DNA of 64,000 nt from Candidatus Moraniibacteriota bacterium (lineage in GTDB: Bacteria > Patescibacteriota > Minisyncoccia > Moranbacterales > UBA2206): the NCBI GenBank assembly GCA_013334765.1, contig JAAXWW010000003.1, positions 49,354 to 113,353 of the forward strand, written 5' to 3'. The notes beneath the pieces were generated by a model. The model was not told where the DNA came from. It did not search any database and was given only the letters and a program-made list of their open reading frames with translations. The position numbers and the translations under genes are program-made. Shown here piece by piece: positions 8,591 through 62,074 of the stretch (position 1 is the stretch's first letter; each line of letters begins with the position of its first letter).

Positions 8591-9187
8591 TTATCTGCAA
8601 GCTATGATATCGAACGTCTTGATTGCTGAGCTGTATGGAACGTATTTGGATTCGCTGCTCCCGCTTGAAATGGCGATATTCTTGAAGCCATGGTCATGAA
8701 GCGATTTTTCAATCACTTCGATCGGATAGGCATACTTGCTCACCTCGATATCATCCCGATCGAATATCCCTCCCTCTACAGTATAGCTGGAAACGAAAAT
8801 CCCGTCGTCTTCAAGCGACTGCCACGCAGAAGCGAACAGATTCTCCAGCTCGTCTTTGCTGATATATTGGAAAAGCCTTGCTGCAATTATAAGGCCGTAT
8901 TTTTCACCGCTGAACGCGTCTTCGACATGGCATTTCCTGAAATTGATCCTTTCCATGATTTCTTGAGGGACATCCGACAGGAAATCCAGATCCGCCACAT
9001 CAACAGCGTCCACATGGAAACCTCTTCCTGCCAGATAAACGGCATTCCTTCCTGCGCCGCATCCCAAATCAAGGACTCGCGATCCATCTTTCAAGTGGTC
9101 AACAACCATCCCAACAACCCGACTGGGCTTGTCAGTTTTTATTGAAAATTTGTTTTCTTTATATGCTTTTTCCCATTTGTGCATCAT
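8591..9187 (-). CDS. class I SAM-dependent methyltransferase (TehB-like)
   Basis: VLDLGCGAGRNAVYLAGRGFHVDAVDV motif I and post-I. 198 aa. Confidence 0.75.
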   Translation of the reverse strand: MMHKWEKAYKENKFSIKTDKPSRVVGMVVDHLKDGSRVLDLGCGAGRNAVYLAGRGFHVDAVDVADLDFLSDVPQEIMERINFRKCHVEDAFSGEKYGLIIAARLFQYISKDELENLFASAWQSLEDDGIFVSSYTVEGGIFDRDDIEVSKYAYPIEVIEKSLHDHGFKNIAISSGSSESKYVPYSSAIKTFDIIACR

Positions 9188-9491
9188 ACGGCTTGGAGCT
9201 GGTATGCATAAATCAACCTTAGTCCCAGAAGGAGACGATTCACCGGAATCCTCCAGGAACGGCGATCAGTCATTGAGCAAATCGGTGCGGTCGTTGGCGG
9301 TCTTGCCAAAGAGGGCATGGCCGTCGCGAAGATAGATTTTGATTTTGTATCTCTTGTTCGATCAGGTGGTACAAAAAATATTCACTGCTTCCAACTGTAC
9401 GTTTCAGCGACCCTAATTTCACATTTTTTCCTGGTATACCATAAAAAATCTGTCCGTAAGCTTTCCTGTTAGACTCACCAAGAGGAGCCTT

Positions 9492-11861
9492 TTAGAATTC
9501 CAAATGAGTCCAGCCCCTCTGCTTTTCACCATTATCCCCATATTCTTCCGACCTATCGCTGATCTTTTCTAGCATCCCAAAGGGGGTATAATTTTCATCA
9601 CTGTTAATTCTAAACTGATTTCCATATTTAACTACTAACCCTCCAAAAAGACTCATTTTTTTCTTTTTTGTATTTTCCTTGCCTACATACTTCTGCAATG
9701 CCTCAGCTTTAAGTTTATTATCATCTTCGTTGTATCCGATTGCTTTAGTGTCAAAAATTCCTATTTTCCCATCTTTAAACTTAACCAAGAAATCGGGCTG
9801 GAACGTCGAACCATCTCCATATTTGATACCGAAATTCATTTCCATATGTTCATTGCCGTTCTGCCACCACCAAGAAATCTTTGACTCATTTTTTTCCAAG
9901 AAATCAATAAACTCTTCTTCGATTTTGCTATCGAAGTTCAAATATGCTTTTCCGTCTTTGGGTGATTTATATATGGATAATTTACTAGTATATGGTTTAT
10001 ACGTATTCGGGTTGTAATTTCGACTACCGGCGATTTCCCATTCTTCATTCCATTGTTCAATTTCCTCGATCTTTTTTTTCTTTTCCTTTTCCTTTATTGG
10101 TTTATATTCGCAAATAGCATTATCGAACAATTTTTCGAATTCCTCAGCATTATTCAAAACAATGTTTTGAATATAAATGATACCGCCACCAATCAGATTT
10201 ATACCTAAATATTTCTTAAACCACCTATATAATGAATTCTTCACAATAGGAATCGATCGCTTTGGCGCAAACCCGTTTAAGTTTATTTTTATGAGATTCT
10301 CAAAGACTCTCTCTTTATCATCCTGCGAAAGAAAGGCTTGGTAGTTTTCTGATGACTTTATTTTCTCATGATCAAGATGATCGAAAAGCTTGGCGTCGAT
10401 TTCTTTATTAAGAATTATTTCATCCCTTCCTTCCAAATCATCAATGACTATCTTTTTGCTGACAATTTTTTTATTTTTTTCTGCAAATCTAAATTCCAAT
10501 TTCCCTTGCGCTATGCTAAAATAATCACACAATACGGATTCCAAGGAACCATAAAAACTTGCAGTTATGTCACCAAAATCGATTCTGTTTCGATAATATG
10601 ATTTCAACTTCAATTTGTCATATTTATCCTCCCTTTTTACAAATATCGATTTGATGATATTAAGATTCGGGTCGTTTTCTTTTTTGACTTCCAGGCTTTT
10701 TACGTTGGTATACACATATGCCCGATTTAAATCATCGCTATTGTAATGTTTCGCTTCCGGCATACGCAAAATTCTTCCCACCGTCTGAATTTCAAAAACC
10801 AAACTTTTGATCTCCCTGAACCTGACTAATATTTGGGCGCGCGGACAATCCCAACCAGTATCAATCGCTTGTTTAAAAATCAAGAATTCCACATCGCTTT
10901 CGTTCGGAGTGACAAATTCTTTTTCTTGATTTATTTTCTCTTCACTCAGCCAGACAGCCAGTTTATGGTTATCATAGGTGATATCCTTACTCGCCAAAAA
11001 ACTTTCCACAAATTCCTTTTTGTCACTGCCCGCTTCACTATCCGGAATCTGGACCAAAACAAGAGGATTGATGCAAACCCCTTCACTTTCATATTGTTTT
11101 TTTATTTCCAATCTTTTCTGCCATGCGGCCTCCATAATCAATTCTTGCGAAGTAATCTCATCATCAATAATATGATCAATGTTTTCATTAACTATGATTT
11201 CCTTTTTAATCATTCCTTCATCAATCACATCCGATGACTGAACGGTAACTTTTTCGTCATATTTGCCCTCTTTCAATACCGGCGTAGCACTCATCTCAAT
11301 AGTCAACTCAGGATTTATAATTTCATCTCTGAGTTCAAAAGCTCTTTCTGCCTTGTCCCTAGAATGACTTTCATCAATAATGAGAATGATTTTCACACCG
11401 GCTTCTTTCGTTTTTTGCACCAATTCTCTGAAATTAACCGTCTCTTTGTCCCTCATGAGAACATTTTTCCATTCACCTGTTTTGCCGTCTTTGCTGCTTA
11501 GTTTTTCCCAATTGCCAACAACAACTTCATTTTTTCCAATAACCCTTCGCGAACCGAAAAACTCCTCTTCAAGCAAATATGTCAACGGGAATCCTCGGAA
11601 TTCCTTTTTGAGAACATCGAAGCTTTGTTTATGCAGACTTCCTTTTCCAGGACTCAACCATAGAAAACACAAATCTTCTTCCTGCATTTCAGCGATAAGC
11701 TGCTCGATGTATCGTGACACCATGAATGTCTTTCCGCTTCCGGTCGGTGCCTGAAAAACAATAGTCCGCTTATCTTTTTTTCCATGAAGAAGTTCCTTTG
11801 TTCGCGTCAACAATTTTTCTATGGCCGCTTCCTGATATTGTTTTGCTTGTTTAGGAATCAT
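9492..11861 (-). CDS. res: Type III restriction enzyme Res subunit (SF2 helicase plus C-terminal PD-ExK nuclease)
   Basis: Walker A VFQAPTGSGKTFM, DEAH-like LIIDESHS, and C-terminal PDFLV...IGIFDTKA nuclease motif. 5-nt gap to the upstream mod gene. Confidence 0.85.
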   Translation of the reverse strand: MIPKQAKQYQEAAIEKLLTRTKELLHGKKDKRTIVFQAPTGSGKTFMVSRYIEQLIAEMQEEDLCFLWLSPGKGSLHKQSFDVLKKEFRGFPLTYLLEEEFFGSRRVIGKNEVVVGNWEKLSSKDGKTGEWKNVLMRDKETVNFRELVQKTKEAGVKIILIIDESHSRDKAERAFELRDEIINPELTIEMSATPVLKEGKYDEKVTVQSSDVIDEGMIKKEIIVNENIDHIIDDEITSQELIMEAAWQKRLEIKKQYESEGVCINPLVLVQIPDSEAGSDKKEFVESFLASKDITYDNHKLAVWLSEEKINQEKEFVTPNESDVEFLIFKQAIDTGWDCPRAQILVRFREIKSLVFEIQTVGRILRMPEAKHYNSDDLNRAYVYTNVKSLEVKKENDPNLNIIKSIFVKREDKYDKLKLKSYYRNRIDFGDITASFYGSLESVLCDYFSIAQGKLEFRFAEKNKKIVSKKIVIDDLEGRDEIILNKEIDAKLFDHLDHEKIKSSENYQAFLSQDDKERVFENLIKINLNGFAPKRSIPIVKNSLYRWFKKYLGINLIGGGIIYIQNIVLNNAEEFEKLFDNAICEYKPIKEKEKKKKIEEIEQWNEEWEIAGSRNYNPNTYKPYTSKLSIYKSPKDGKAYLNFDSKIEEEFIDFLEKNESKISWWWQNGNEHMEMNFGIKYGDGSTFQPDFLVKFKDGKIGIFDTKAIGYNEDDNKLKAEALQKYVGKENTKKKKMSLFGGLVVKYGNQFRINSDENYTPFGMLEKISDRSEEYGDNGEKQRGWTHLEF

Positions 11862-11866
11862 ATAGC

Positions 11867-13957
11867 TTATATATTAAAGCTTTCAATTAAGGCTTGCACG
11901 TGTTTATAGAAATTCTCCGCATGTTTGAGCTCATATTCTGAATATTCTCCATGTGACGCGTGATTTCCAATTGCCAGATATGTTTTGTTTTCTTCCCACT
12001 GAACTTTGGAAAAAATATTCTCATTCTTCAGCTTATCATTAAGAATAGCAGCTTTTTCTTCCTTGGCATTTTCCTTCAGAATATTCATACCGCTTCTTTG
12101 CGCGATTTTTTGAATAGTTTTTTCGAGCACAATGCGCAGGATTCTCGCACCTTCGTCTTTCTCTTTTTCTTCAAAAATTTTGACTTTCGCCTTATCGAGA
12201 TCAGAAAAGATCGTATCAGCCTTTACTGAAACATTCATTTTGACCAGCTGCTTATATATTTCAAGGATTTTCTGAGGAATTTCCTCGATGTCAAAATCAT
12301 CGACATCATTGAAAAGACTCACATCAACTGTGCCATCCATCGAAAACATATATATTATTTTCTTGCCTTTGAGTTTTTTTATTTCTTTCAGAAAATCTTC
12401 AAAACTGTCGTCAAGAAAATTATAGTAAACGCACAGAAATTTATCTTTTTTATGAGATGAGAAAATCTTGTAATCCTCTTGTTTGGATTCCAGATTGAAT
12501 ATATTTTCTTTCACGCAAAGCATCTGTGTGCATTTTTGCGTGAGATCAACACGCACCTGATCTTTGCTCTTTGTTTTTTTAACCAAATCAGTGCGGAAAT
12601 ATTGCAAATTCCCGCCCAGCCCTTCCACTTTTTCACCGTTACCATTTTTGTTATACCCATTGATAACTTTTTGCAAACGAGGATATGTCACTTCTTCGCA
12701 AATACCATTTTCGTTGTTCGTACAAAGAATAAATTTTCTATTTCCTCCATCATCTTCATTTAATTTTAAAACTGCTTGCCCTGTAGTACCAGAACCAGCA
12801 AAAAAATCAAGAATTATAGCATTATCATTTTTTGAACAAACACGAATACAATCAACAACTGCATACAAGGATTTTGGAAATGAAAAACTGCCCGAATTTC
12901 CAATTATTTCGTCGAGAATTGAAGTTCCATGCTCACTTGCTGAATATCTAACATCATCCCAAAAACTTTTTGGCGTTTCACCTTCTAATCCTCCTTTAAA
13001 TCTAAAATATACCTGATACCCATGTTTAGTTTGTTTTACTGAAAGATCTCCATTTTTATATAATTTTTCAATATCATCTTTTCCTCTTCTCCATATTCTT
13101 TTTTGATTTTTCGTATCTATTGGCAAAATCTCAATTTCTAATTTTTTTAACGCACTAATTTCTCCTGTTTTTGGATTAAAATATATAGAATAGTATCTGT
13201 CATAAAAAGATCCGTCCTTTTTTATCGCAAGACTGTCCTGCCCCTCCTTTCTCAAATTACGTTCTTCAAACCAATTTCCTGAATCATCCTGATAATATTT
13301 GTGATTTTTATCCTTTGGATGGACAAAAAATGGAGAAACCTTCGTTTCTATGCTTTTTGCGAAAAAAATAGCATACTCATGTTGCAAAGCAACTTTCTTT
13401 TTGCTTTTTCTTCCTCCTGGATTGTTTCTAATTACAACAGTACCTAGATGATTATTTTCACCAAATATCTTATCTAATAACATCCATAGTGTTCGTAGTT
13501 CATAATCATCAATTGTTATGCAAATGATACCATCCTCTTTTAGAATATTTTTTGCAATATTTAATCGCTTTTCCATCATATTAAGCCACTTTGAATGCCT
13601 GTAACCATCATCCTCGCCTACAAATCTATTATTATATTTCCAGTCTTTTGCACCAGTGTTGTACGGCGGATCAATATAAATCACATCAATTTTTTCCTTG
13701 TGCGTATAATTCAAAACGGTGAGCGCATGATAGTTATCGCCTTCAATCAAAATATTGTCAGTCTCATCGCATGTTTTTATTTCTTTTCCCTTTACGTGCT
13801 TCAAAACCGGTAGATTATTTTCACAATCCAAAACAACCTGCTCCGGCTCACGTTCCGAATCCCAAACTAATCCATATTTTTTAGATGACAATTCTGCCTC
13901 CTGTTTTTCAACAAGCTTTAGAAGATCTTCTTTGGATAGATTTGAGTATTTATTCAT
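11867..13957 (-). CDS. mod: Type III restriction-modification Mod subunit (N6-adenine/N4-cytosine DNA methyltransferase)
   Basis: Motif IV VIYIDPPYNTG and motif I ILDFFAGSGTTGQA. 696 aa. Confidence 0.85.
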   Translation of the reverse strand: MNKYSNLSKEDLLKLVEKQEAELSSKKYGLVWDSEREPEQVVLDCENNLPVLKHVKGKEIKTCDETDNILIEGDNYHALTVLNYTHKEKIDVIYIDPPYNTGAKDWKYNNRFVGEDDGYRHSKWLNMMEKRLNIAKNILKEDGIICITIDDYELRTLWMLLDKIFGENNHLGTVVIRNNPGGRKSKKKVALQHEYAIFFAKSIETKVSPFFVHPKDKNHKYYQDDSGNWFEERNLRKEGQDSLAIKKDGSFYDRYYSIYFNPKTGEISALKKLEIEILPIDTKNQKRIWRRGKDDIEKLYKNGDLSVKQTKHGYQVYFRFKGGLEGETPKSFWDDVRYSASEHGTSILDEIIGNSGSFSFPKSLYAVVDCIRVCSKNDNAIILDFFAGSGTTGQAVLKLNEDDGGNRKFILCTNNENGICEEVTYPRLQKVINGYNKNGNGEKVEGLGGNLQYFRTDLVKKTKSKDQVRVDLTQKCTQMLCVKENIFNLESKQEDYKIFSSHKKDKFLCVYYNFLDDSFEDFLKEIKKLKGKKIIYMFSMDGTVDVSLFNDVDDFDIEEIPQKILEIYKQLVKMNVSVKADTIFSDLDKAKVKIFEEKEKDEGARILRIVLEKTIQKIAQRSGMNILKENAKEEKAAILNDKLKNENIFSKVQWEENKTYLAIGNHASHGEYSEYELKHAENFYKHVQALIESFNI

Positions 13958-13986
13958 AATATTGCAAACTTGGATAATTTCTATTT

Positions 13987-14316
13987 CTATTTTTTATTTT
14001 CTATATTTTTTAGCCTCATGTCTAAATTATCGATTCTTTTTGTAAATTTCTCATACCTCTCTGCATTATCCCTATAGTAGTCAAAAAGAAGAGGAATCAA
14101 TGCAAGAAAAAAAGCAACTATAATTATACCAGCAATCCCCATAATAAAATTTATCGCCTTATCTTGATTTTTTTCTGATCTCCTCAAGGATTTCTCTATA
14201 TCAAGCGCCTTAATTTCCAAAGCATCAAGCCTGGTAGAAGCGGGAACTGATGTTGCTTTCACAGAAACCTCACTAGACGTCGAACTTGTTGAAATTTTTT
14301 CTTTCAAATTAGACAT
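13987..14316 (-). CDS. small single-pass membrane protein with coiled-coil (cassette gene 4)
   Basis: 109 aa. Central TM helix (GIAGIIIVAFFLALIPLLF) flanked by charged helical segments. 8-nt overlap with the upstream ORF. Confidence 0.5.
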   Translation of the reverse strand: MSNLKEKISTSSTSSEVSVKATSVPASTRLDALEIKALDIEKSLRRSEKNQDKAINFIMGIAGIIIVAFFLALIPLLFDYYRDNAERYEKFTKRIDNLDMRLKNIENKK

Positions 14317-14731
14317 TATTTGCTTTTTCTAGAATCAAATAATTACTTTCGCTCAAAAGATGTTCTCCTGATTTAATTCTTATTAAATATCTCCCTTCGC
14401 TCGCAAATGGCAACCCAATAACATTGGCAACAAAATTTGCCCCTCCCCCATCCTCTTTTATTTCAATATTTCCACCTAATGAAGCAATTACCTGATTTTG
14501 AGGAGAAACAATCTCTATTTTTATATTGTAAAAATTTTTCTTTCCAATTAAGCCAATTGAAATTGCAAAAGCTGGCTGCATTGCTGGAAAATTTACAACA
14601 AATATTCTGTCAAAAATACCAATAATATTCAACTTGCCTTCTTGTGAAAAGAAAGCGTTCTCACTAATATGAACGAATTTTAATTCAATATTTGTCATAA
14701 TTTTTTTGAATTTTAAAGTTAATTTACCCAA
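14309..14731 (-). CDS. hypothetical beta-rich protein (cassette gene 3)
   Basis: 140 aa. No motif recognised. Overlaps neighbours by 8-13 nt, indicating translational coupling. Confidence 0.5.
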   Translation of the reverse strand: MGKLTLKFKKIMTNIELKFVHISENAFFSQEGKLNIIGIFDRIFVVNFPAMQPAFAISIGLIGKKNFYNIKIEIVSPQNQVIASLGGNIEIKEDGGGANFVANVIGLPFASEGRYLIRIKSGEHLLSESNYLILEKANNV

Positions 14732-15405
14732 AAGCTACTGCCGTTATCAAATCTATCCCTCTCTATGTTCAAAATTTCCGCAAAGGTACGCTTTGGTATC
14801 CATCTTTTATCTTTTTCTGCCCAATTTTTAAAGATAATTGTTCCCTTTTGATAACTAATGATATTAGAAATAACCATGCCAGCAAGCATAGAGCAAGTTC
14901 CAAAGTTTTTTACCCCCTCAAGATCGCACTGCTTCCTCAAGCCTTTATCATTAGTCAAAATTGCACAATCTGAATAATCTAACACTCCCGTTATCGTTAT
15001 TAAACTCTTATCTTCAATGGATAGATTACTTGTCCATTGGCATGAATTTTTCCAAAGCGTACCACCTCTAAGAGTGGACACCCCTTCTGTTTTAGAGTAA
15101 ATTACATTCACTGAAATGCTAGAGCCATAGAAACTATAGGAAAAATCACCATTAGCTGCCAAAAAAACAGTCCCACTCTTTCCTGAAATACAAGATGTAT
15201 TTGCTATAGACTCAACGAGTATATTTCGTTGATTATTATGTTCATAGGTAAATTCACATGAAACACACTCGGAGCTCGTAGCTGTTTTTAATCCAGCTTG
15301 CGCATAAAAAGCGTTTATTTTTTCTATTTGAATCTGATCTTCTTTTAAGGAATACCTTACTGGATCAATTCCTGATGTATCCCAAATTAAAATTTTGTTT
15401 TTCAT
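14719..15405 (-). CDS. hypothetical Cys-containing protein (cassette gene 2)
   Basis: Start moved to the internal Met (MKNKILIWD) preceded by GGTGG/AAGG. Only 4 nt after the stop of the protease gene. Confidence 0.5.
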   Translation of the reverse strand: MKNKILIWDTSGIDPVRYSLKEDQIQIEKINAFYAQAGLKTATSSECVSCEFTYEHNNQRNILVESIANTSCISGKSGTVFLAANGDFSYSFYGSSISVNVIYSKTEGVSTLRGGTLWKNSCQWTSNLSIEDKSLITITGVLDYSDCAILTNDKGLRKQCDLEGVKNFGTCSMLAGMVISNIISYQKGTIIFKNWAEKDKRWIPKRTFAEILNIERDRFDNGSSFWVN

Positions 15406-15409
15406 AACC

Positions 15410-16426
15410 TTATTTCCACCCCTGTCCAAGCACCCTCCACACAATCTGCTCCTGCGGGATATTAATAACACCCACCTGAGTTTGCTGTTGGACATTTTGC
15501 TGGACTTTTTTAAATTCCATATCGATCTCGAAATGATTACTAATTTCCGCGCTCTCAACATACGCGATCATATATTTATGTAACTCTCCACTTTTGAGTT
15601 CAATTTCAGGATTCCACATTTCAGTCATATGCATATCCCTGTTGTATCCATCATAAACCTCAGTCATCAAATCAGACATCTCCTTATCAGCATCCACGAC
15701 CGTTTTGATTCCCAAATCCTCTTTGGCTTCCTTGCGGCCGATATAGTATTGGTGAGAATATAGTTTTTCAGTCAGAAATTCGATAACCTTCTCAATTTCA
15801 TCCTCCTTAAGCGGTTGCTTATGGCTTTTGAGCAAACGCTTGGCCAGAATCTTGATCAGATTATGCGTGCGATTCACATTGCCGAGCGCTAATGGGTGAA
15901 TCGATGGGTTGCTTTCCACGAATTTGTTGAATATTTTAGTCAGTTCCTCATCGCTTTTGATGCCGAATTTATTCTTTGCCAAATCGAAATAACTCATGAC
16001 CTCTTCGACTGAAATTGGAATTCGGTTTTGTGGATTTTGCGGATCAACTGGATTGAAAACATTGGCGGTTGAAGGATCAATCGGAGAAAGTTCGGACATG
16101 TCACTCATCACAATTTCATCAGCACCAAGTGAAATCATAGTAGCCGCGCTATGGGCTTTGTATGGGATAATAACAGAAAAATGGTCGCAATACTCACGAA
16201 TCATCGAAACCAACCTCCATGGAACCATAGTATCTCCTCCCGCGCTATACAAAACAAGGTCGATTTTTTCTTGTTTGCCGATTTTGCGAAGATGGCTGCT
16301 GATGATCGGAATAATATCCATTGCCACACGCGCATTTACTGGACCTTGCCGATCGCTCGTGGCATAGGTAATAACCTTTGAACCACGCAACTGCTCGATT
16401 TTTTTTATTATTTCTTGTGTTTGCAT
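15410..16426 (-). CDS. ClpP/crotonase-fold serine protease of the SDH (serine dehydrogenase proteinase, S49-like) family (cassette gene 1)
   Basis: IDLVLYSAGGDTMVPWRLVSMIRE...IPYKAHSAATMISLGADEIVM matches the nucleophile and oxyanion regions of S49/SDH ClpP-class peptidases. 338 aa. Confidence 0.6.
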   Translation of the reverse strand: MQTQEIIKKIEQLRGSKVITYATSDRQGPVNARVAMDIIPIISSHLRKIGKQEKIDLVLYSAGGDTMVPWRLVSMIREYCDHFSVIIPYKAHSAATMISLGADEIVMSDMSELSPIDPSTANVFNPVDPQNPQNRIPISVEEVMSYFDLAKNKFGIKSDEELTKIFNKFVESNPSIHPLALGNVNRTHNLIKILAKRLLKSHKQPLKEDEIEKVIEFLTEKLYSHQYYIGRKEAKEDLGIKTVVDADKEMSDLMTEVYDGYNRDMHMTEMWNPEIELKSGELHKYMIAYVESAEISNHFEIDMEFKKVQQNVQQQTQVGVINIPQEQIVWRVLGQGWK

Positions 16427-16450
16427 AATTTTTTATAAATTATATGATAC

Positions 16451-16467
16451 GGTGATATTATATCACC
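16451..16467. promoter_or_regulatory. 17-bp palindrome GGTGATATtATATCACC overlapping a -10 box upstream of the cassette
   Basis: Minus strand reads TTGTGA-N17-TATAAT-atcaccgtatca-TATAAT-N12-ATG. The palindrome spans the first TATAAT. Confidence 0.5.
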
Positions 16468-16543
16468 ATGAAAAAATTTCACAATACCCGCATTGTTGAT
16501 ATTTTTTCCTGTACTCCCATTCTACTCCTTTTTTAACCCTAGT

Positions 16544-17002
16544 TCAAGCGAAAACAAGCACCCTTTCCAGCAGCTCATCGAAGAAAGGCTTCTTCGTTCC
16601 GCCCTCTGCCAGCCGCTCGTCATCCATCACGAAACCTTTCACGATATATTCCCTGAGTTTCTGGGTCGCCCAGATGCGGAATTGGGTGCCGCGGAGGGAT
16701 TTGACTCTATATCCTACAGAGATTATCACATCAAGATTGTAGTGTTCAATATCACGAGAAATGTGCCTATTGCCCTCTTTTTGAACTATCCGGAATTTCC
16801 GGATAGCTGGATCCTTCTCTAATTCTCCCTCGCTAAAAACATTCAGAACATGCTCATTCACTGTCCTTACGTCCTTATCGAACAGTTCCGCCATCTGCTT
16901 CTGACTGAGCCAGACAGTCTCGCCGTCAAGACTGACTTCGATTTCCGTTTTTCCGTCCTCCGTGCTATAGAGGATTACCTTGTTGTTGTTTTTATTGTCC
17001 AT
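16544..17002 (-). CDS. RhuM-family (virulence protein RhuM-like) protein, copy 1
   Basis: KVILYSTEDGKTEIEVSLDGETVWLSQKQMAELFDKDVRTVNEHVLNVF is the conserved RhuM N-terminal domain. Confidence 0.7.
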   Translation of the reverse strand: MDNKNNNKVILYSTEDGKTEIEVSLDGETVWLSQKQMAELFDKDVRTVNEHVLNVFSEGELEKDPAIRKFRIVQKEGNRHISRDIEHYNLDVIISVGYRVKSLRGTQFRIWATQKLREYIVKGFVMDDERLAEGGTKKPFFDELLERVLVFA

Positions 17003-17059
17003 TTTTATGTCTTAAGTTTTATTCCCAACCCAAAAAAGCACGATTTGCCTATCGTGCCT

Positions 17060-17094
17060 ATCATAGCAAGCGGGAGATAAAATTATTCTCAAAT
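17060..17094. repeat. ~35-bp direct repeat ATCATAGCAAGCGGGAGATAAAATTATTCTCAAAT (copy a; copy b at 17673-17707)
   Basis: Identical 35-mers sit 58-92 nt and 36-70 nt upstream of the two rhuM-like genes. Unit length is ~613 bp, indicating a tandem duplication of leader plus gene. Confidence 0.8.
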
Positions 17095-17139
17095 TTTCTT
17101 TCGGATGGCGAAAAAGGGCAGAAATCCCGCTTCTTTTCG

Positions 17140-17637
17140 CTATCGAACCATTTTGGGATCAAGCGCGATATGCGAAGGCAGAAGCATCTGGATGTCCCCG
17201 ACCGCTTTCATGAAAGCGTCGTAGTTCTTGCCGATCTGCTTGCGGTTTATGGTATAGCCCTGAATCAGATAGCTCTTTAAGACTTTATTTGCCCATTTTC
17301 TGAATTCAACTGCCCTGGAAGAATTCGTTCTGTATCCAACGCTAAGAATGACATCCAAAGCATAGGATTCGACATTTTTTGTCTGAGTTTTTCCCTTAAT
17401 TGCGCCATGCTTAGTGGTATGTGCAAATTTTGCACATACCTTGTCCTTATCAAGCTCCTTATCAGTGAAAATATTCTTAATATGCCTATTGACTACCGTT
17501 CTATCGATCCCGAAGATATCGGCAATCTGTTTTTGCGTCGCCCAGATATTTTCATGCTCGAAATCGCCCCGAAGCTCAATGGCTCCGTTCTTGGCTTGAT
17601 AGATGACTATATCGTTTTTCATTTCTTTCTTTTTCAT
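17140..17637 (-). CDS. RhuM-family protein, copy 2 (paralogue of 16544-17002)
   Basis: IVIYQAKNGAIELRGDFEHENIWATQKQIADIFGIDRTVVNRHIKNIF aligns with copy 1 and with the RhuM N-domain. Confidence 0.7.
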   Translation of the reverse strand: MKKKEMKNDIVIYQAKNGAIELRGDFEHENIWATQKQIADIFGIDRTVVNRHIKNIFTDKELDKDKVCAKFAHTTKHGAIKGKTQTKNVESYALDVILSVGYRTNSSRAVEFRKWANKVLKSYLIQGYTINRKQIGKNYDAFMKAVGDIQMLLPSHIALDPKMVR

Positions 17638-17672
17638 ATTTTTAATTTTTCATAAATAACAACCACTGTATA

Positions 17673-17707
17673 ATCATAGCAAGCGGGAGATAAAATTATT
17701 CTCAAAT
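17673..17707. repeat. direct repeat copy b (see 17060-17094)
   Basis: Same 35-mer. Overlaps the stop codon of the alkylation-repair gene. Confidence 0.8.
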
Positions 17708-18424
17708 CTTCTGTTTGAGTGCCAGGTAGTGTTGGCGCTTGGGTTCGCTGAAGCGTTCGATAGCATAGCGGAGGGCGGTGCGGGGCATCTTGGCGGCATG
17801 GGCGTCCAGGAAGGCGCATTCGATTTCTTCGCCGCACCGCTTGCCTACCTCGCGAAGCATCCAGCCGACCGCCTTGTGCATCAGGTCATGTTTGTCGCCG
17901 AGGAGCTTCTTGGCAAGCCTGAGAGTCCACTGGCTTTCGCCCTTCTTGATAAAATGGAAAGTCGCTAGGATCGAAATCCTCCGTTCCCAAAGCAGATCCG
18001 ATCCGGCGAGCGAAAGCAGGATCTTCTTGTCACGGTTCTCGAGATAGCTGCCAACAATCCTGTCAGCCGTCAGATCGACCAGGTCCCAACTGTTGATATG
18101 TTCCGTGTTGGCAAGATATGCATTGAAAATCCCTTCCTTTTTTTCCTCATCCCCTTTCTGGAACTGATCAACCATGACCAAAAGCGCGAAAAGGCGCTCT
18201 TCATGGAAGGCGGAATGAAGGAAGAAAAGGATGTCATCCATCTGGATGCCGCGGTATTTCGCGACCAGGGGGCGCGTGTCCGGAACGACGATGCCCAGGA
18301 ACTTGTCGCCCTCGCCGTATTGCCCTTTTCCAGTCTTGAAAAACCCAGCCAGAACCAGCGCTTTCTCCTTGTTCGCCAGAAGGCGCATCTCTTTTCGTAT
18401 TGCTGAAACTTTTTTGCTGTTCAT
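17702..18424 (-). CDS. DNA alkylation repair protein (AlkC/AlkD HEAT-repeat glycosylase family)
   Basis: 240 aa all-helical. N-terminal pattern ...IRKEMRLLANKEKALVLAGFFKTGKGQYGEGDKFLGI typical of the AlkD-like family. Confidence 0.65.
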   Translation of the reverse strand: MNSKKVSAIRKEMRLLANKEKALVLAGFFKTGKGQYGEGDKFLGIVVPDTRPLVAKYRGIQMDDILFFLHSAFHEERLFALLVMVDQFQKGDEEKKEGIFNAYLANTEHINSWDLVDLTADRIVGSYLENRDKKILLSLAGSDLLWERRISILATFHFIKKGESQWTLRLAKKLLGDKHDLMHKAVGWMLREVGKRCGEEIECAFLDAHAAKMPRTALRYAIERFSEPKRQHYLALKQKI

Positions 18425-18432
18425 GGGCGTAT

Positions 18433-20067
18433 TTATACCTTCAAATTCTTCCCCCGTTCCGCTTTGGCCGCGACCAGTTTTATCTTCTCGTAGCTTATGT
18501 TCTCCGGCAGGATATCCTTAATCGGTTTCAGCCTTTCGGCGCTTCCGACCCGATCGATTGCGGCTGCAATGTCCTCTTCCTCAGCTTCAGAAACGAACTT
18601 GCGGATATCCAAATCTTTTCCGGAAAGATGCCAATCCGCCAAATGGCTGATGATGGTCCGGTCGCTCAATCCCCGGATCTTCACCATCTGTTCCAGAGTG
18701 TATCCACGCTGATAGAGATCGCCTGTCGCCCGGACAGTGGCGCCGATCAGGTTCCTGGTTGCCCTTTTCTCCTTCAAGCGGCTCCTAAAATCGTTGCTGT
18801 CGTCTTTCTTTCTTTTCCAGCCGAGACACACGTCGCAGCCTTGGCAATTGTCGCCATGCGTCGGATATTCCGGATCGTCGAAATATTTGAGGATGTTCTT
18901 CCGGCGGCATTTGGCTGTTTCGACATAGCCGATCATCTTGTCGAGCCGGTCGTATTTTATGGAAATGAGGCAGCTTATCTCTTCGTCCGACTTGCCCTGA
19001 TCCCACATGGCTTGGCGGTCGTTACGGATGAAGAATTTGTGCATCGTGACATCACGCTTGCCATGAAGCAATATGCAATATGCTGTCTCCCCGTCCCGGC
19101 CGGCGCGTCCGGCTTCCTGATAGTATCCTTCCAGATTCTTGGGCATGCCGGCGTGGATGACGAACCTGACATCGGATTTGTCCACGCCCATCCCAAAAGC
19201 GATGGTCGCCACGATGACTTTGTAGTTGTCGTCCATGAAACCGTTCTGGATCTTCTCGCGTTCCGGCCCGCTCATGCCGGCATGATATGCGGCAGCCGGA
19301 ACATCGTTTTCTTTAAGGAAAAGCGCCATCTGATCAGCTTCTTTCCTTGTGAGGGTATATATGATCCCAACTCCCTCCATGGTGCCGACCAAACGCAGGA
19401 CTTCGGCATAGCGTTCGCGCGGCTTGAGATCCTTCTCCACAAAGAATTTCAGATTAGGACGGTTGAATCCGCGCACGAACACTTGGGGATCCTTGAGCGC
19501 CAACCTCACGGAAATATCGTCTTTCACTTCCGGCGTCGCCGTCGCGGTGAAAGCGGCCACTGCGGGACGGTTGCGAAGACGGCCGATGAAATCCTTGATT
19601 TCGAGATAGTCGGGACGGAAATCATGTCCCCAGGCGGAAACGCAGTGCGCCTCGTCGACTGCCAGAAGGAAAAAATCGATATCGGCGATGAGCGCTTGGA
19701 AGTTCCGGTTGGACAATCTTTCCGGAGCGACATAGAGCAGCTTGTATTTCCCGTTTCGGACTCCCTGGACGCGGAAATCGACCTCGGAAGGAGACAGCGA
19801 GCTGTTGATGAAAGTGGCCGGGATGCCGCGGGCGTTGAGCGCGTCGACTTGGTCTTTCATGAGCGCGATGAGCGGAGAAATGATAATCGAGGTTTTCTGA
19901 CTGAGAATGGCCGGCAGCTGATAGCACAAAGACTTCCCTCCGCCGGTCGGCATGAGAGCGACAACATCTTTCCCTGCCAGGATCGCCTCGACGATTTCGC
20001 GCTGTCCCGGACGGAACTGGGAAAAATTGAAATATCTTTCTAGGTATCCTTCAAGCATGTCTTTCAT
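18433..20067 (-). CDS. recQ: ATP-dependent DNA helicase RecQ
   Basis: RPGQREIVEAIL, MPTGGGKSLCYQLPA, DEAH, Zn-binding Cys cluster, and C-terminal HRDC-like region. 544 aa. Confidence 0.9.
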   Translation of the reverse strand: MKDMLEGYLERYFNFSQFRPGQREIVEAILAGKDVVALMPTGGGKSLCYQLPAILSQKTSIIISPLIALMKDQVDALNARGIPATFINSSLSPSEVDFRVQGVRNGKYKLLYVAPERLSNRNFQALIADIDFFLLAVDEAHCVSAWGHDFRPDYLEIKDFIGRLRNRPAVAAFTATATPEVKDDISVRLALKDPQVFVRGFNRPNLKFFVEKDLKPRERYAEVLRLVGTMEGVGIIYTLTRKEADQMALFLKENDVPAAAYHAGMSGPEREKIQNGFMDDNYKVIVATIAFGMGVDKSDVRFVIHAGMPKNLEGYYQEAGRAGRDGETAYCILLHGKRDVTMHKFFIRNDRQAMWDQGKSDEEISCLISIKYDRLDKMIGYVETAKCRRKNILKYFDDPEYPTHGDNCQGCDVCLGWKRKKDDSNDFRSRLKEKRATRNLIGATVRATGDLYQRGYTLEQMVKIRGLSDRTIISHLADWHLSGKDLDIRKFVSEAEEEDIAAAIDRVGSAERLKPIKDILPENISYEKIKLVAAKAERGKNLKV

Positions 20068-61985: not shown

Positions 61986-62000
61986 TGGGAAAGGCCTGAT

Positions 62001-62074
62001 GGGCCTGGGGAGATTCGAACCCCCGACTACCCCGGGTGCTAGCCCGGTAGCTCTACCGCTGAGCTACAGACCCA
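62001..62074 (-). tRNA. tRNA, anticodon uncertain (anticodon loop CUAGCA(C), formally AGC)
   Basis: Minus strand gggtctg-ta-gctc-agcggta-gagc-ta-ccggg-ctagca-cccgg-ggtagtc-ggggg-ttcgaat-ctccc-caggccc-a. Acceptor 7/7 with one G-U, good D and T arms. The anticodon arm is either a perfect 5-bp stem with a 6-nt loop or a 7-nt loop with a G-G mismatch. Confidence 0.6.

Follow-up and report, generated by a model that had tools for sequence, protein, structure and literature searches.

A conserved SDH-type protease at the head of exchangeable gene modules and restriction–modification genes in Patescibacteria: a candidate protease-controlled module

What is the role of a ClpP/SppA-fold serine protease that heads a four-gene cassette directly upstream of a Type III restriction–modification (R-M) pair? 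The question is raised by a 64,000-nucleotide (nt) stretch of a Candidatus Moraniibacteriota genome (contig JAAXWW010000003.1, positions 49,354 to 113,353; "the window" below means this whole stretch), which carries the cassette genes G1 to G4 followed by mod and res. The answer we favour, with moderate confidence and by analogy, is that G1 to G4 may form a protease-controlled module of the toxin–antitoxin (TA) or abortive-infection (Abi) type, co-operonic with the R-M genes. The protease G1 is the constant component of related loci; its partners are exchanged between genomes, and its distant relatives precede toxin genes. The genes concerned are the following (lengths in amino acids, aa).

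15410-16426, minus strand: G1, SDH-type ClpP/SppA-fold serine protease, 338 aa
14719-15405, minus strand: G2, soluble protein with seven Cys residues and without a family match, 228 aa
14309-14698, minus strand: G3, DUF6941 all-beta sandwich protein, 129 aa
13987-14316, minus strand: G4, coiled-coil membrane protein, 109 aa
11867-13957, minus strand: mod, Type III R-M methyltransferase (Mod), N6_N4_Mtase (Pfam), 696 aa
9492-11861, minus strand: res, Type III restriction subunit (Res), ResIII (Pfam), 789 aa

The first-pass annotation of this DNA had described four tightly packed, co-directional genes, and all of these features are found on the minus strand at the coordinates it gave. The 4-nt gap between G1 and G2 and the 8-nt overlap of G3 and G4 hold, and the distance between G4 and mod is 29 nt instead of 30. 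The G2/G3 junction depends on the start of G3: the ATG at 14698, favoured by the N-termini of homologues and by the public annotation (129 aa, P0121), leaves a 20-nt gap; the 13-nt overlap described earlier exists only with the alternative TTG at 14731 (14309-14731, 140 aa). The products of mod and res match the PADLOC Type III models MTase_III (E = 4e-82) and REase_III (E = 3e-20), respectively; Res comprises a helicase and a C-terminal PD-(D/E)XK-like motif, and the two genes adjoin with a 5-nt gap, as in Type III R-M systems. The guanine–cytosine (GC) content is not about 30% throughout, as had been stated: it is 0.416 in G1, 0.31-0.35 in G2 to G4, 0.334 in mod, and 0.362 in res, and 0.48 in the flanks.

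The protease and its partner genes

G1 scores 52.8 bits against the Pfam family SDH_protease PF01972 (gathering score 31.3), with only residues 3-123 aligned, and 63.9 bits against the NCBIfam equivalog NF047768, for which the cut-off is 250. A 39%-identical homologue from E. coli is labelled "SDH family Clp fold serine proteinase" by PGAP. The triad Ser93-Asp117-His225 is invariant in alignments of 71 and 135 sequences, and a GG oxyanion motif lies at residues 63-64; invariant or nearly so across the family are Gly63-Gly64, Ser93, Asp117, Glu141, Gly182, Arg186, and His225. G1 thus has the Ser-Asp-His catalytic order that defines SDH proteases, on a ClpP/crotonase fold. In an exhaustive search, the family comprises 3782 clusters at 50% identity; for most of these, the homology to G1 extends along the whole protein.

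The AlphaFold2 model of G1 (predicted local distance difference test, pLDDT, 89.6) has a ClpP/SppA-like N-terminal half, a helical middle region, and C-terminal beta-hairpins at residues 282-337. A sequence search of the PDB gives nothing significant (E around 0.2), hence no solved relative is detectable by sequence; with Foldseek, the best PDB matches of the model are SppA and ClpP (E ~2e-5, template-modelling (TM) score 0.35-0.39). In BFVD, the best matches are "serine dehydrogenase proteinases" of giant viruses (E = 4e-11, TM score 0.5-0.57). Several paralogues of these closest viral structural matches are found in giant viruses (Mimivirus-, Marseillevirus-, and Klosneuvirus-like). The likeness to SppA is at the fold level only: the Pfam scan gives no Peptidase_S49 (SppA) match for G1, which is not a member of S49, and no transmembrane segment is seen (highest 19-residue hydropathy 0.95). 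The initial protease call is supported by the Pfam threshold, the ClpP/SppA fold, and the invariant triad, and G1 appears, as judged from sequence and model, to be a plausible active protease.

A phage origin was also considered, with G1 as a ClpP-like prohead protease in a prophage remnant, accompanied by scaffold or capsid debris. It draws on weak matches to the head-maturation models NF045542 (34.4 bits) and phrog_1684 (E = 3e-9). However, the former is far below its cut-off of 120, and no portal, capsid, or terminase gene lies near G1, nor are structural phage genes seen in the window or in related loci. The first-pass annotation had named an association with phage capsid genes as a test of its proposal; IMG/VR holds no close relatives of G1, capsid neighbours are absent, and the fold is closer to SDH proteinases (TM score 0.5-0.57) than to the phage Clp-like prohead proteases, which rank below them in BFVD (0.3-0.38). 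The downstream genes are also too small for capsid proteins. By family score and by gene position, G1 is not a phage head-maturation protease, and we exclude this reading with confidence.

The three small proteins had been described as lacking any recognisable domain. This stands for G2, for which scans of Pfam, PADLOC, and NCBIfam give no family, the PDB sequence search gives nothing significant, and no transmembrane segment is predicted. Its homologues are confined to the loci L017/L056 (47% identity), plus a fragment in L039. The C-terminal ~75 aa of G2 are related to a family (c62) that holds the position of G2 in other loci; c62 (L014 3186-3971; kin to the G2 C-terminus, window 14719-14950) weakly matches the PADLOC candidate PDC-S70 (E = 3e-6 over ~40 residues). 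G2 is an optional insert. The description fails for G3, which belongs to DUF6941 (PF22091; E = 4e-17, 63 bits vs. a gathering score of 27, model positions 4-119 of 125), in agreement with the precomputed Pfam assignment of its homologues. Its predicted model, an all-beta sandwich (pLDDT 81), resembles other structures only in generic ways; matches to the Wzt carbohydrate-binding domain, PDE6D/UNC119, and Ig-like domains reflect a generic beta-sandwich, and no ligand is assigned. The homologue search for G3, made with a word prefilter, yields only eight proteins and no context beyond Patescibacteria; the PDB sequence search gives nothing significant.

The N-terminal tail of G4 is rich in Ser/Thr (ISTSSTSS); after it come a coiled coil, one strong transmembrane segment (57-80), and a charged coiled-coil C-terminus. 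It weakly matches the holin family phrog_689 in PHROGs (E = 0.0012). Its length of 109 aa, single transmembrane segment, and charged C-terminus would fit a holin, and no endolysin gene lies nearby; this match is suggestive only. G4 is one of a superfamily of coiled-coil transmembrane partners encoded behind the protease.

More than 2000 close homologues of G1 (66-89% identity) come nearly all from Moranbacteria and other Patescibacteria, and collapse into one cluster at 50% identity; 80 loci were collected, of which 57 are non-redundant. Over about 50 non-redundant Patescibacteria loci, the identity of the protease is 66-87%. In the collected Patescibacteria loci the protease is always the first gene, and the downstream content is modular. 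Module A, that of the window (G3 and G4), combines DUF6941 with a coiled-coil transmembrane protein; module B, a soluble ~230-aa protein (c2) with a multi-span transmembrane protein; module C is a single N-terminally anchored ~230-aa protein (c6); and module D is a coiled-coil transmembrane protein alone. Optional inserts directly after the protease are c7 (100 aa, C-terminally anchored), DUF6680, KilA-N/Bro-N, c62, and G2. Nearly all modules include a membrane protein, and the coiled-coil transmembrane proteins of different modules are mutually related (hhalign probabilities 91-97%). In most loci, the genes next downstream either overlap the protease gene or start almost directly behind it. 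What had been taken for a fixed four-gene cassette is thus one arrangement among others: G2 is optional, and G3 with G4 make up one module out of three or more that replace each other as partners.

The genomic position of the protease differs between genomes, and its upstream neighbours vary. Two loci (L011 and L025) share their outer-flank genes on both sides; between these, the module and the R-M genes differ, and the protease is constant inside the island. In one Patescibacteria genome (L004/L005, 8001-10364), the usual chaperone operon is interrupted between grpE and dnaK by an insertion that encodes the protease, a coiled-coil transmembrane protein, and a protein of 260 aa. Seven metagenome-assembled contigs with protease islands (L009, L014, L015, L023, L028, L031, L033) are labelled "uncultured Bdellovibrionales" or "Gammaproteobacteria"; with such gene content, and with 80-86% identity to proteins of Moranbacteria, these labels seem unreliable.

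No PADLOC-DB v2 model, BREX included, matches G1 to G4 at E <= 0.1, and there is no PADLOC match for the partner families c2, c6, c7, TM11, and DUF6680; a weak partial match is seen for TM14 with ZorB (E = 1e-5). The earlier remark that the gene set fits no system that can be named holds in this sense, as no known defence model in PADLOC matches G1 to G4 or these partner families.

The protease and its partners evolve differently. In the same locus pairs, the mean identity is 79-84% for the protease and 37-52% for the DUF6941, c2, c6, and transmembrane partners; compared within the same pairs, the protease reaches 86% vs. 64% for RadC, and 73% vs. 67% for DnaK. Since synonymous sites of the protease are saturated (proportion of synonymous differences, pS, 0.72-0.89) and the ratio of nonsynonymous to synonymous substitution rates (dN/dS) is below 0.05, its conservation reflects long-term purifying selection. 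GC content and third-position GC (GC3, 0.22-0.67) of the protease follow those of the host, and the partners are always AT-rich. Recent horizontal transfer as the cause of the high protease identity is rejected by the pS values and by the agreement of GC3 with host GC. On the protease tree, module types and R-M types alike are dispersed. That the protease co-evolves with the module type is likewise rejected, since pairs with the same module have a mean identity of 0.830, and those with different modules 0.827.

Such constancy could point to G1 as a housekeeping SppA-like protease for the quality control of membrane proteins or peptides, with the coiled-coil transmembrane protein as its anchor or adaptor and the 3' flank as an insertion hotspot. 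In line with this, the best solved-structure matches are SppA, dN/dS is below 0.05 with GC tracking the host, the partners are membrane proteins, and one locus lies between grpE and dnaK. We nevertheless regard it as improbable: the position and the upstream neighbours of the protease vary, and in L011 and L025 it lies inside an island with common flanks; the E. coli copy is accessory, being found on prophages in 0.9% of genomes; the partners change rapidly and give way to non-homologous modules; and among distant relatives the protease is paired with MazF, Doc, and PIN toxins in defence islands.

Restriction–modification genes and transcription

R-M genes very often follow the modules. They comprise Type III systems of several lineages (mod 24-60% identical to that of the window); EcoRII-C with a C5 methyltransferase; RadC, a C5 methyltransferase, HpaII, and Vsr; a methyltransferase with AlwI; a methyltransferase with MvaI/BcnI; and HNH_2 with Vsr. 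For 26 non-redundant loci, the flanks extend 6 kb or more to either side; in these, a DNA methyltransferase is found within 6 kb downstream in 13 loci and upstream in at most one; by open reading frames (ORFs), these are 13 of 139 downstream and at most one of 132 upstream (p = 0.0015). In most loci the called ORFs of the cassette and the methyltransferase overlap or are at most 12 nt apart; these overlaps may be somewhat overstated, as the ORF calls take the longest ORF.

The R-M link is real and directional, and probably operonic. R-M genes downstream in at least 13 of the 26 loci, and upstream in at most one, uphold the defence association of the first-pass annotation, but not a specific tie to Type III: the R-M cargo is non-homologous (Types III, II, and IIS, and HNH) and shuffled relative to the protease tree. 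The coupling to R-M thus appears to be genomic and transcriptional, with no dedicated protein–protein partnership with one R-M type, and the cassette does not form a fixed composite system with Type III R-M.

The same data bear on the possibility that the cassette is an R-M control module, in which the protease degrades Res (or Mod) for safe establishment or restriction alleviation. An analogue exists in Type I systems, where HsdR is degraded in a ClpXP-dependent manner. The cassette is co-directional with the R-M genes and directly upstream of them, often overlapping, behind a single strong promoter, as such a role would imply. However, the R-M partners are non-homologous (Type III lineages, EcoRII-C/C5 methyltransferase, HpaII, AlwI, MvaI, HNH) and the protease remains 80-87% identical; about half of the adequately flanked loci have no R-M genes downstream, and distant relatives precede TA toxins; and the membrane partners are left unexplained. 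Together, these make R-M control quite improbable.

The following sites lie in front of G1.

16457..16484, minus strand: sigma-70-like promoter, TTGTGA, 16-nt spacer, TATAAT with a TG extension
16451-16467: perfect 17-bp palindrome GGTGATATAATATCACC, read from the sequence, spanning the -10 hexamer

The TTGTGA and TATAAT hexamers and a second TATAAT downstream (ending at 16439) had been noted before, and all are present, with a spacer of 16 nt rather than 17. The site had also been called the only strong promoter-like sequence; it is top-scoring among promoter-like sites in 9300-17200 (7.9 kb; 10 of 12 positions), but shares this score with six others. The 17-bp palindrome, too, lies over the first -10 as described. 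Of 49 non-redundant related loci, 7 have its core GTGATATAATATCAC (at most two mismatches) at -40 to -54; the background is 9 matches in 733 kb. The palindrome may be a putative operator, and we keep this as a hypothesis because its left arm and centre are themselves an extended -10 and the cassette lacks a DNA-binding domain.

A DnaA-box-like perfect sequence, TTATCCACAG, is found in L001, L013, and L014 just upstream of the -35 region, some 60-80 nt ahead of the start of the protease gene; L009 and L011 carry TTATTCACAG instead. It is absent from the window, where a RhuM fragment (see below) abuts the promoter.

Between G4 and mod, no terminator-like site or hairpin is seen on the coding strand, and the cassette and the downstream R-M genes may, as far as the sequence indicates, form one transcription unit. 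An Rfam scan of 9000-18500 gives one sub-threshold chance match only, and therefore no evidence for an RNA antitoxin.

Distant relatives, the proposed mechanism and the island edges

Distant relatives were searched for with a profile of 36 diverse family members. They are 34-50% identical and occur in Nitrospirota, Omnitrophota, Zixibacteria, Acidobacteriota, Planctomycetota, Firmicutes, Thorarchaeota, and Nitrososphaerota; in IMG/VR, the same profile finds 23 good loci. Usually the protease is followed by a protein of 58-130 aa and then by one of 100-195 aa, with tiny gaps or overlaps. Among the 72 ORFs surveyed at positions +1 to +3, toxins are represented by PemK/MazF (six), Fic/Doc (two), PIN (two), PIN_8 (one), and PIN_12 (one); PLDc_2, Mrr_cat, SNase, a weak SIR2_2 match, and R-M genes are also seen, and in one locus the third gene is, as judged by eye, RelE/ParE-like. 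In MazF-type loci the tail of the middle protein is MazE-like (W-D/N-x-P-E-D/E-D-x-A-W-A-x-L); due to this acidic, Trp-containing tail, the middle protein is a plausible antitoxin without the usual DNA-binding domain. The neighbouring genes are of the kind commonly met in defence and TA islands, among them HinfI R-M, an OLD-family nuclease, a BrxL fragment, and HicB, as well as HepT/MNT, SocA_Panacea, Eco57I, and a serine recombinase.

That distant members precede MazF, Doc, PIN, and RelE-like toxins argues for a TA or Abi logic. In the window cassette itself no Type II TA pair is recognised among G2 to G4; such pairs, with PemK, Fic/Doc, PIN, or RelE-like toxins, accompany only the distant relatives, and therefore the window cassette may act in a TA-like way and is not to be filed as a TA system. 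The +1 proteins of distant loci carry a hydrophobic-S-[ST]-[STAG] motif near the N-terminus in 9 of 19 cases vs. 20 of 288 (p = 8e-6, for a motif defined post hoc, after the data had been seen). G4 matches it with ISTSS, and the motif may mark a recognition site.

In Omnitrophota (L085 8058-8708), in Nitrospirota (L087 4146-4730), and on another contig (L132 3166-3763), the protease is followed by two small soluble proteins that form a conserved pair. The first protein has 83-111 aa; the second has 99-106 aa, starts with "YDIYLPL.YN..", and has an "FGGLS" motif. There is no family match on record for either, and the second is a candidate new toxin family.

Some copies stand alone. The protease is solo in L084 and L133, and in lambdoid prophages and phage-plasmids of E. 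coli the 39%-identical copy lies, also solo, between the antiterminator Q gene and a lambda-family holin gene. The E. coli copies were located as follows.

L134 2229-3224, opposite orientation: E. coli homologue, catalytic motifs intact
L135 3501-4496, opposite orientation: E. coli homologue, catalytic motifs intact

This homologue, with the protein accessions WP_044064371.1 and WP_086714419.1, is present in 47 of 5426 complete E. coli genomes (0.9%), in an accessory, moron position, and other phage copies are likewise in moron-like positions. G1 could hence be a stand-alone Lit-like protease for abortive infection or exclusion, cutting a phage protein or an essential host protein, with the downstream genes as independent cargo. 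The solo copies, in phages and on chromosomes, agree with this, as do the very strong conservation, which would fit the recognition of a conserved target, and the shuffling of the downstream content independently of the protease. We nonetheless consider it rather unlikely: in most loci the protease gene is overlapped, or all but touched, by the genes next downstream, and a membrane partner, or a small protein with a toxin, recurs directly after it across phyla. Such recurrent overlapping partners speak against a protease acting alone, because a chance accumulation of cargo would not predict them.

In the protease-controlled module that we favour, the constant component would be G1, a self-contained ClpP/SppA-fold Ser-Asp-His protease, and the variable component would be the effector set, here the holin-like single-pass G4 and the soluble G3 (DUF6941), with G2 as an extra, optional subunit. 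G1 would control the effector by proteolysis. It might remove a neutralising partner, or the inhibitory Ser/Thr-rich N-terminal tail of G4; alternatively, it might keep the effector degraded until infection upsets the balance. On either route, the infected cell would suffer membrane damage and stop growing. The part of neutraliser or adaptor would fall to G3, alone or together with G2. In Patescibacteria the module would share one promoter with whichever R-M system lies downstream, giving a two-layer defence island in a very small genome.

More tentatively, we suggest as a possibility that SDH-type ClpP-fold proteases are a large undescribed class of protease-gated three-component toxin modules, promiscuous with dozens of unrelated effectors and recognising a short Ser/Thr-rich degron on the neighbouring protein, the Patescibacteria branch being the constant head of exchangeable defence operons. 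Effectors of such a class would include MazF, Doc, PIN, RelE, PLD, Mrr nucleases, holin-like membrane proteins, and possibly restriction enzymes.

Several observations weigh against the protease-controlled module. The window cassette has no classical toxin, and G4 is proposed as the effector by analogy and as a recurrent partner. Scans of Pfam, PADLOC, NCBIfam, and PHROGs assign no toxin or antitoxin family to G2, G3, or G4, and reveal no homology of these to toxins, antitoxins, or defence proteins that have been validated. In Patescibacteria cassettes, the Ser/Thr motif shows no significant enrichment (8% vs. 4%, p = 0.13), and no cassette gene has a DNA-binding domain that would account for the palindrome. 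From L084, L133, and the E. coli prophage copies it follows that the protease may act without a linked partner. The very strong purifying selection and the host-tracking GC are atypical for defence genes and would also fit a housekeeping protease. The loci without downstream R-M genes, about half of those adequately flanked, count on the same side.

The surroundings of the island are ordinary genes, namely DNA-alkylation repair, RecQ, VanY, and RadC upstream, and a SAM methyltransferase, NUDIX, and TspO downstream. Between the island and the upstream flank, at the upstream edge of the low-GC island, stand two RhuM-family fragments in tandem (span 16544..17637).

16544-17002, minus strand: truncated RhuM-family fragment
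17140-17637, minus strand: truncated RhuM-family fragment

They are 5' parts of different genes (35% mutual identity), each covering about one third of the RhuM model, and look like recombination scars. RhuM, Bro-N, KilA-N, and DinD-like genes recur in or beside related islands; in L001, a full RhuM gene is placed between mod and res.

The upstream RhuM fragment is enclosed by a 40-nt direct repeat (17060-17099 and 17673-17712), 98% identical overall and exact over 35 nt, of which chance would predict no instance. The DNA-alkylation-repair gene extends with its 3' end into one copy, and the other directly precedes a terminator-like hairpin (17036-17059). The arrangement looks like a 613-bp insertion with target duplication, or a tandem recombination scar. 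A 25-nt imperfect direct repeat (9418-9442 and 16496-16520; 76% identical; minus strand ATGG..AGGAAAAAAT..AA) flanks the 7.08-kb block from G1 to res, just outside both its ends; the copies could be boundary marks of the island, or may be a chance match in AT-rich DNA. Farther away, ARAGORN finds a tRNA-like gene at 61998-62074 with an undetermined two-base anticodon ("ag"), adjoining tRNA-Gly(GCC).

Comparison with known systems

The window cassette fits no named system; what would be new here is this protease family, with its partners, in a candidate TA/Abi-type module. No paper on PF01972-type proteases in TA or defence contexts was found in the literature searched, which does not prove that there is none. 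If the proposed reading is true, it would add a new and very widespread regulatory principle of TA and Abi systems, in which a dedicated ATP-independent ClpP-fold protease is encoded together with the toxin; DUF6941 and DUF6680 would receive a functional hypothesis for the first time; and it would show how ultra-small Patescibacteria genomes pack layered immunity into one operon, in which one gene hardly varies and the cargo behind it is exchanged. With the prophage homologue from E. coli and the three-gene loci of MazF type, the idea is directly testable in a tractable host.

Among proteases, G1 shares with SppA (S49; 3rst, 4kwb) and ClpP (S14) the common fold, the oxyanion motif GG, and the nucleophilic Ser, which lies in the corresponding helix. 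Unlike them, it has no transmembrane anchor and no Pfam S49 or ClpP match; its catalytic residues are Ser-Asp-His, as opposed to Ser-Lys in SppA and the Ser-His-Asp order of ClpP; and it has an extra helical region and C-terminal beta-hairpins. Lit, encoded by prophage e14, is a Zn-metalloprotease that acts in abortive infection without partners; G1 relatives are similarly prophage-borne, but there is no homology, and the catalytic type differs.

The analogy with BREX drawn by the first-pass annotation has no homology support. Only the general idea of a protease-like gene near a methyltransferase is common to both; the window has no BREX genes and no PADLOC BREX match, and a BREX-like reading is rejected on the latter ground. 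BrxL, moreover, is a Lon-related ATPase encoded last in its operon, whereas G1 comes first, is not an ATPase, and has the ClpP fold. PrrC is an anticodon nuclease silenced by one specific Type I enzyme (EcoprrI) and is encoded by an abortive-infection gene within an R-M locus. There, as is proposed here, an Abi-type second line is embedded in or beside an R-M operon; however, there is no homology, and here the R-M partner is interchangeable.

Proteolytic neutralisation of a toxin has a precedent in the type VI system SocAB, where an adaptor feeds the toxin to ClpXP; the protease there is the housekeeping ClpXP, and here it is encoded inside the module. In Panacea systems, the hyperpromiscuous antitoxin domain PanA is combined with many unrelated toxins, membrane toxins included. 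The likeness, one conserved component with many unrelated toxin domains, is at the level of gene architecture only, and PanA, unlike G1, is not a protease.

The nearest described concept is that of the predicted three-component TA systems of Makarova, Wolf and Koonin (2009; PMC2701414), which consist of a COG2856 (ImmA/IrrE) Zn-protease, an Xre antitoxin, and a RelE or PIN toxin. Here, as there, a dedicated protease gene, a small middle protein, and interchangeable toxins lie in one operon; the COG2856 systems, too, are abundant on mobile elements and prophages, and in both the protease is proposed to cut the neutralising component. The COG2856 protease is a metallopeptidase and G1 an unrelated ClpP-fold Ser-Asp-His enzyme; the middle protein is a helix-turn-helix repressor there, whereas here it has no detectable DNA-binding domain, and the proposed effector of the Patescibacteria modules is a membrane protein. 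None of these systems (Panacea, SocAB, PrrC-EcoprrI, or COG2856) is homologous to the cassette, and the resemblance of the last lies in a protease gene encoded together with a small middle protein and exchangeable toxins.

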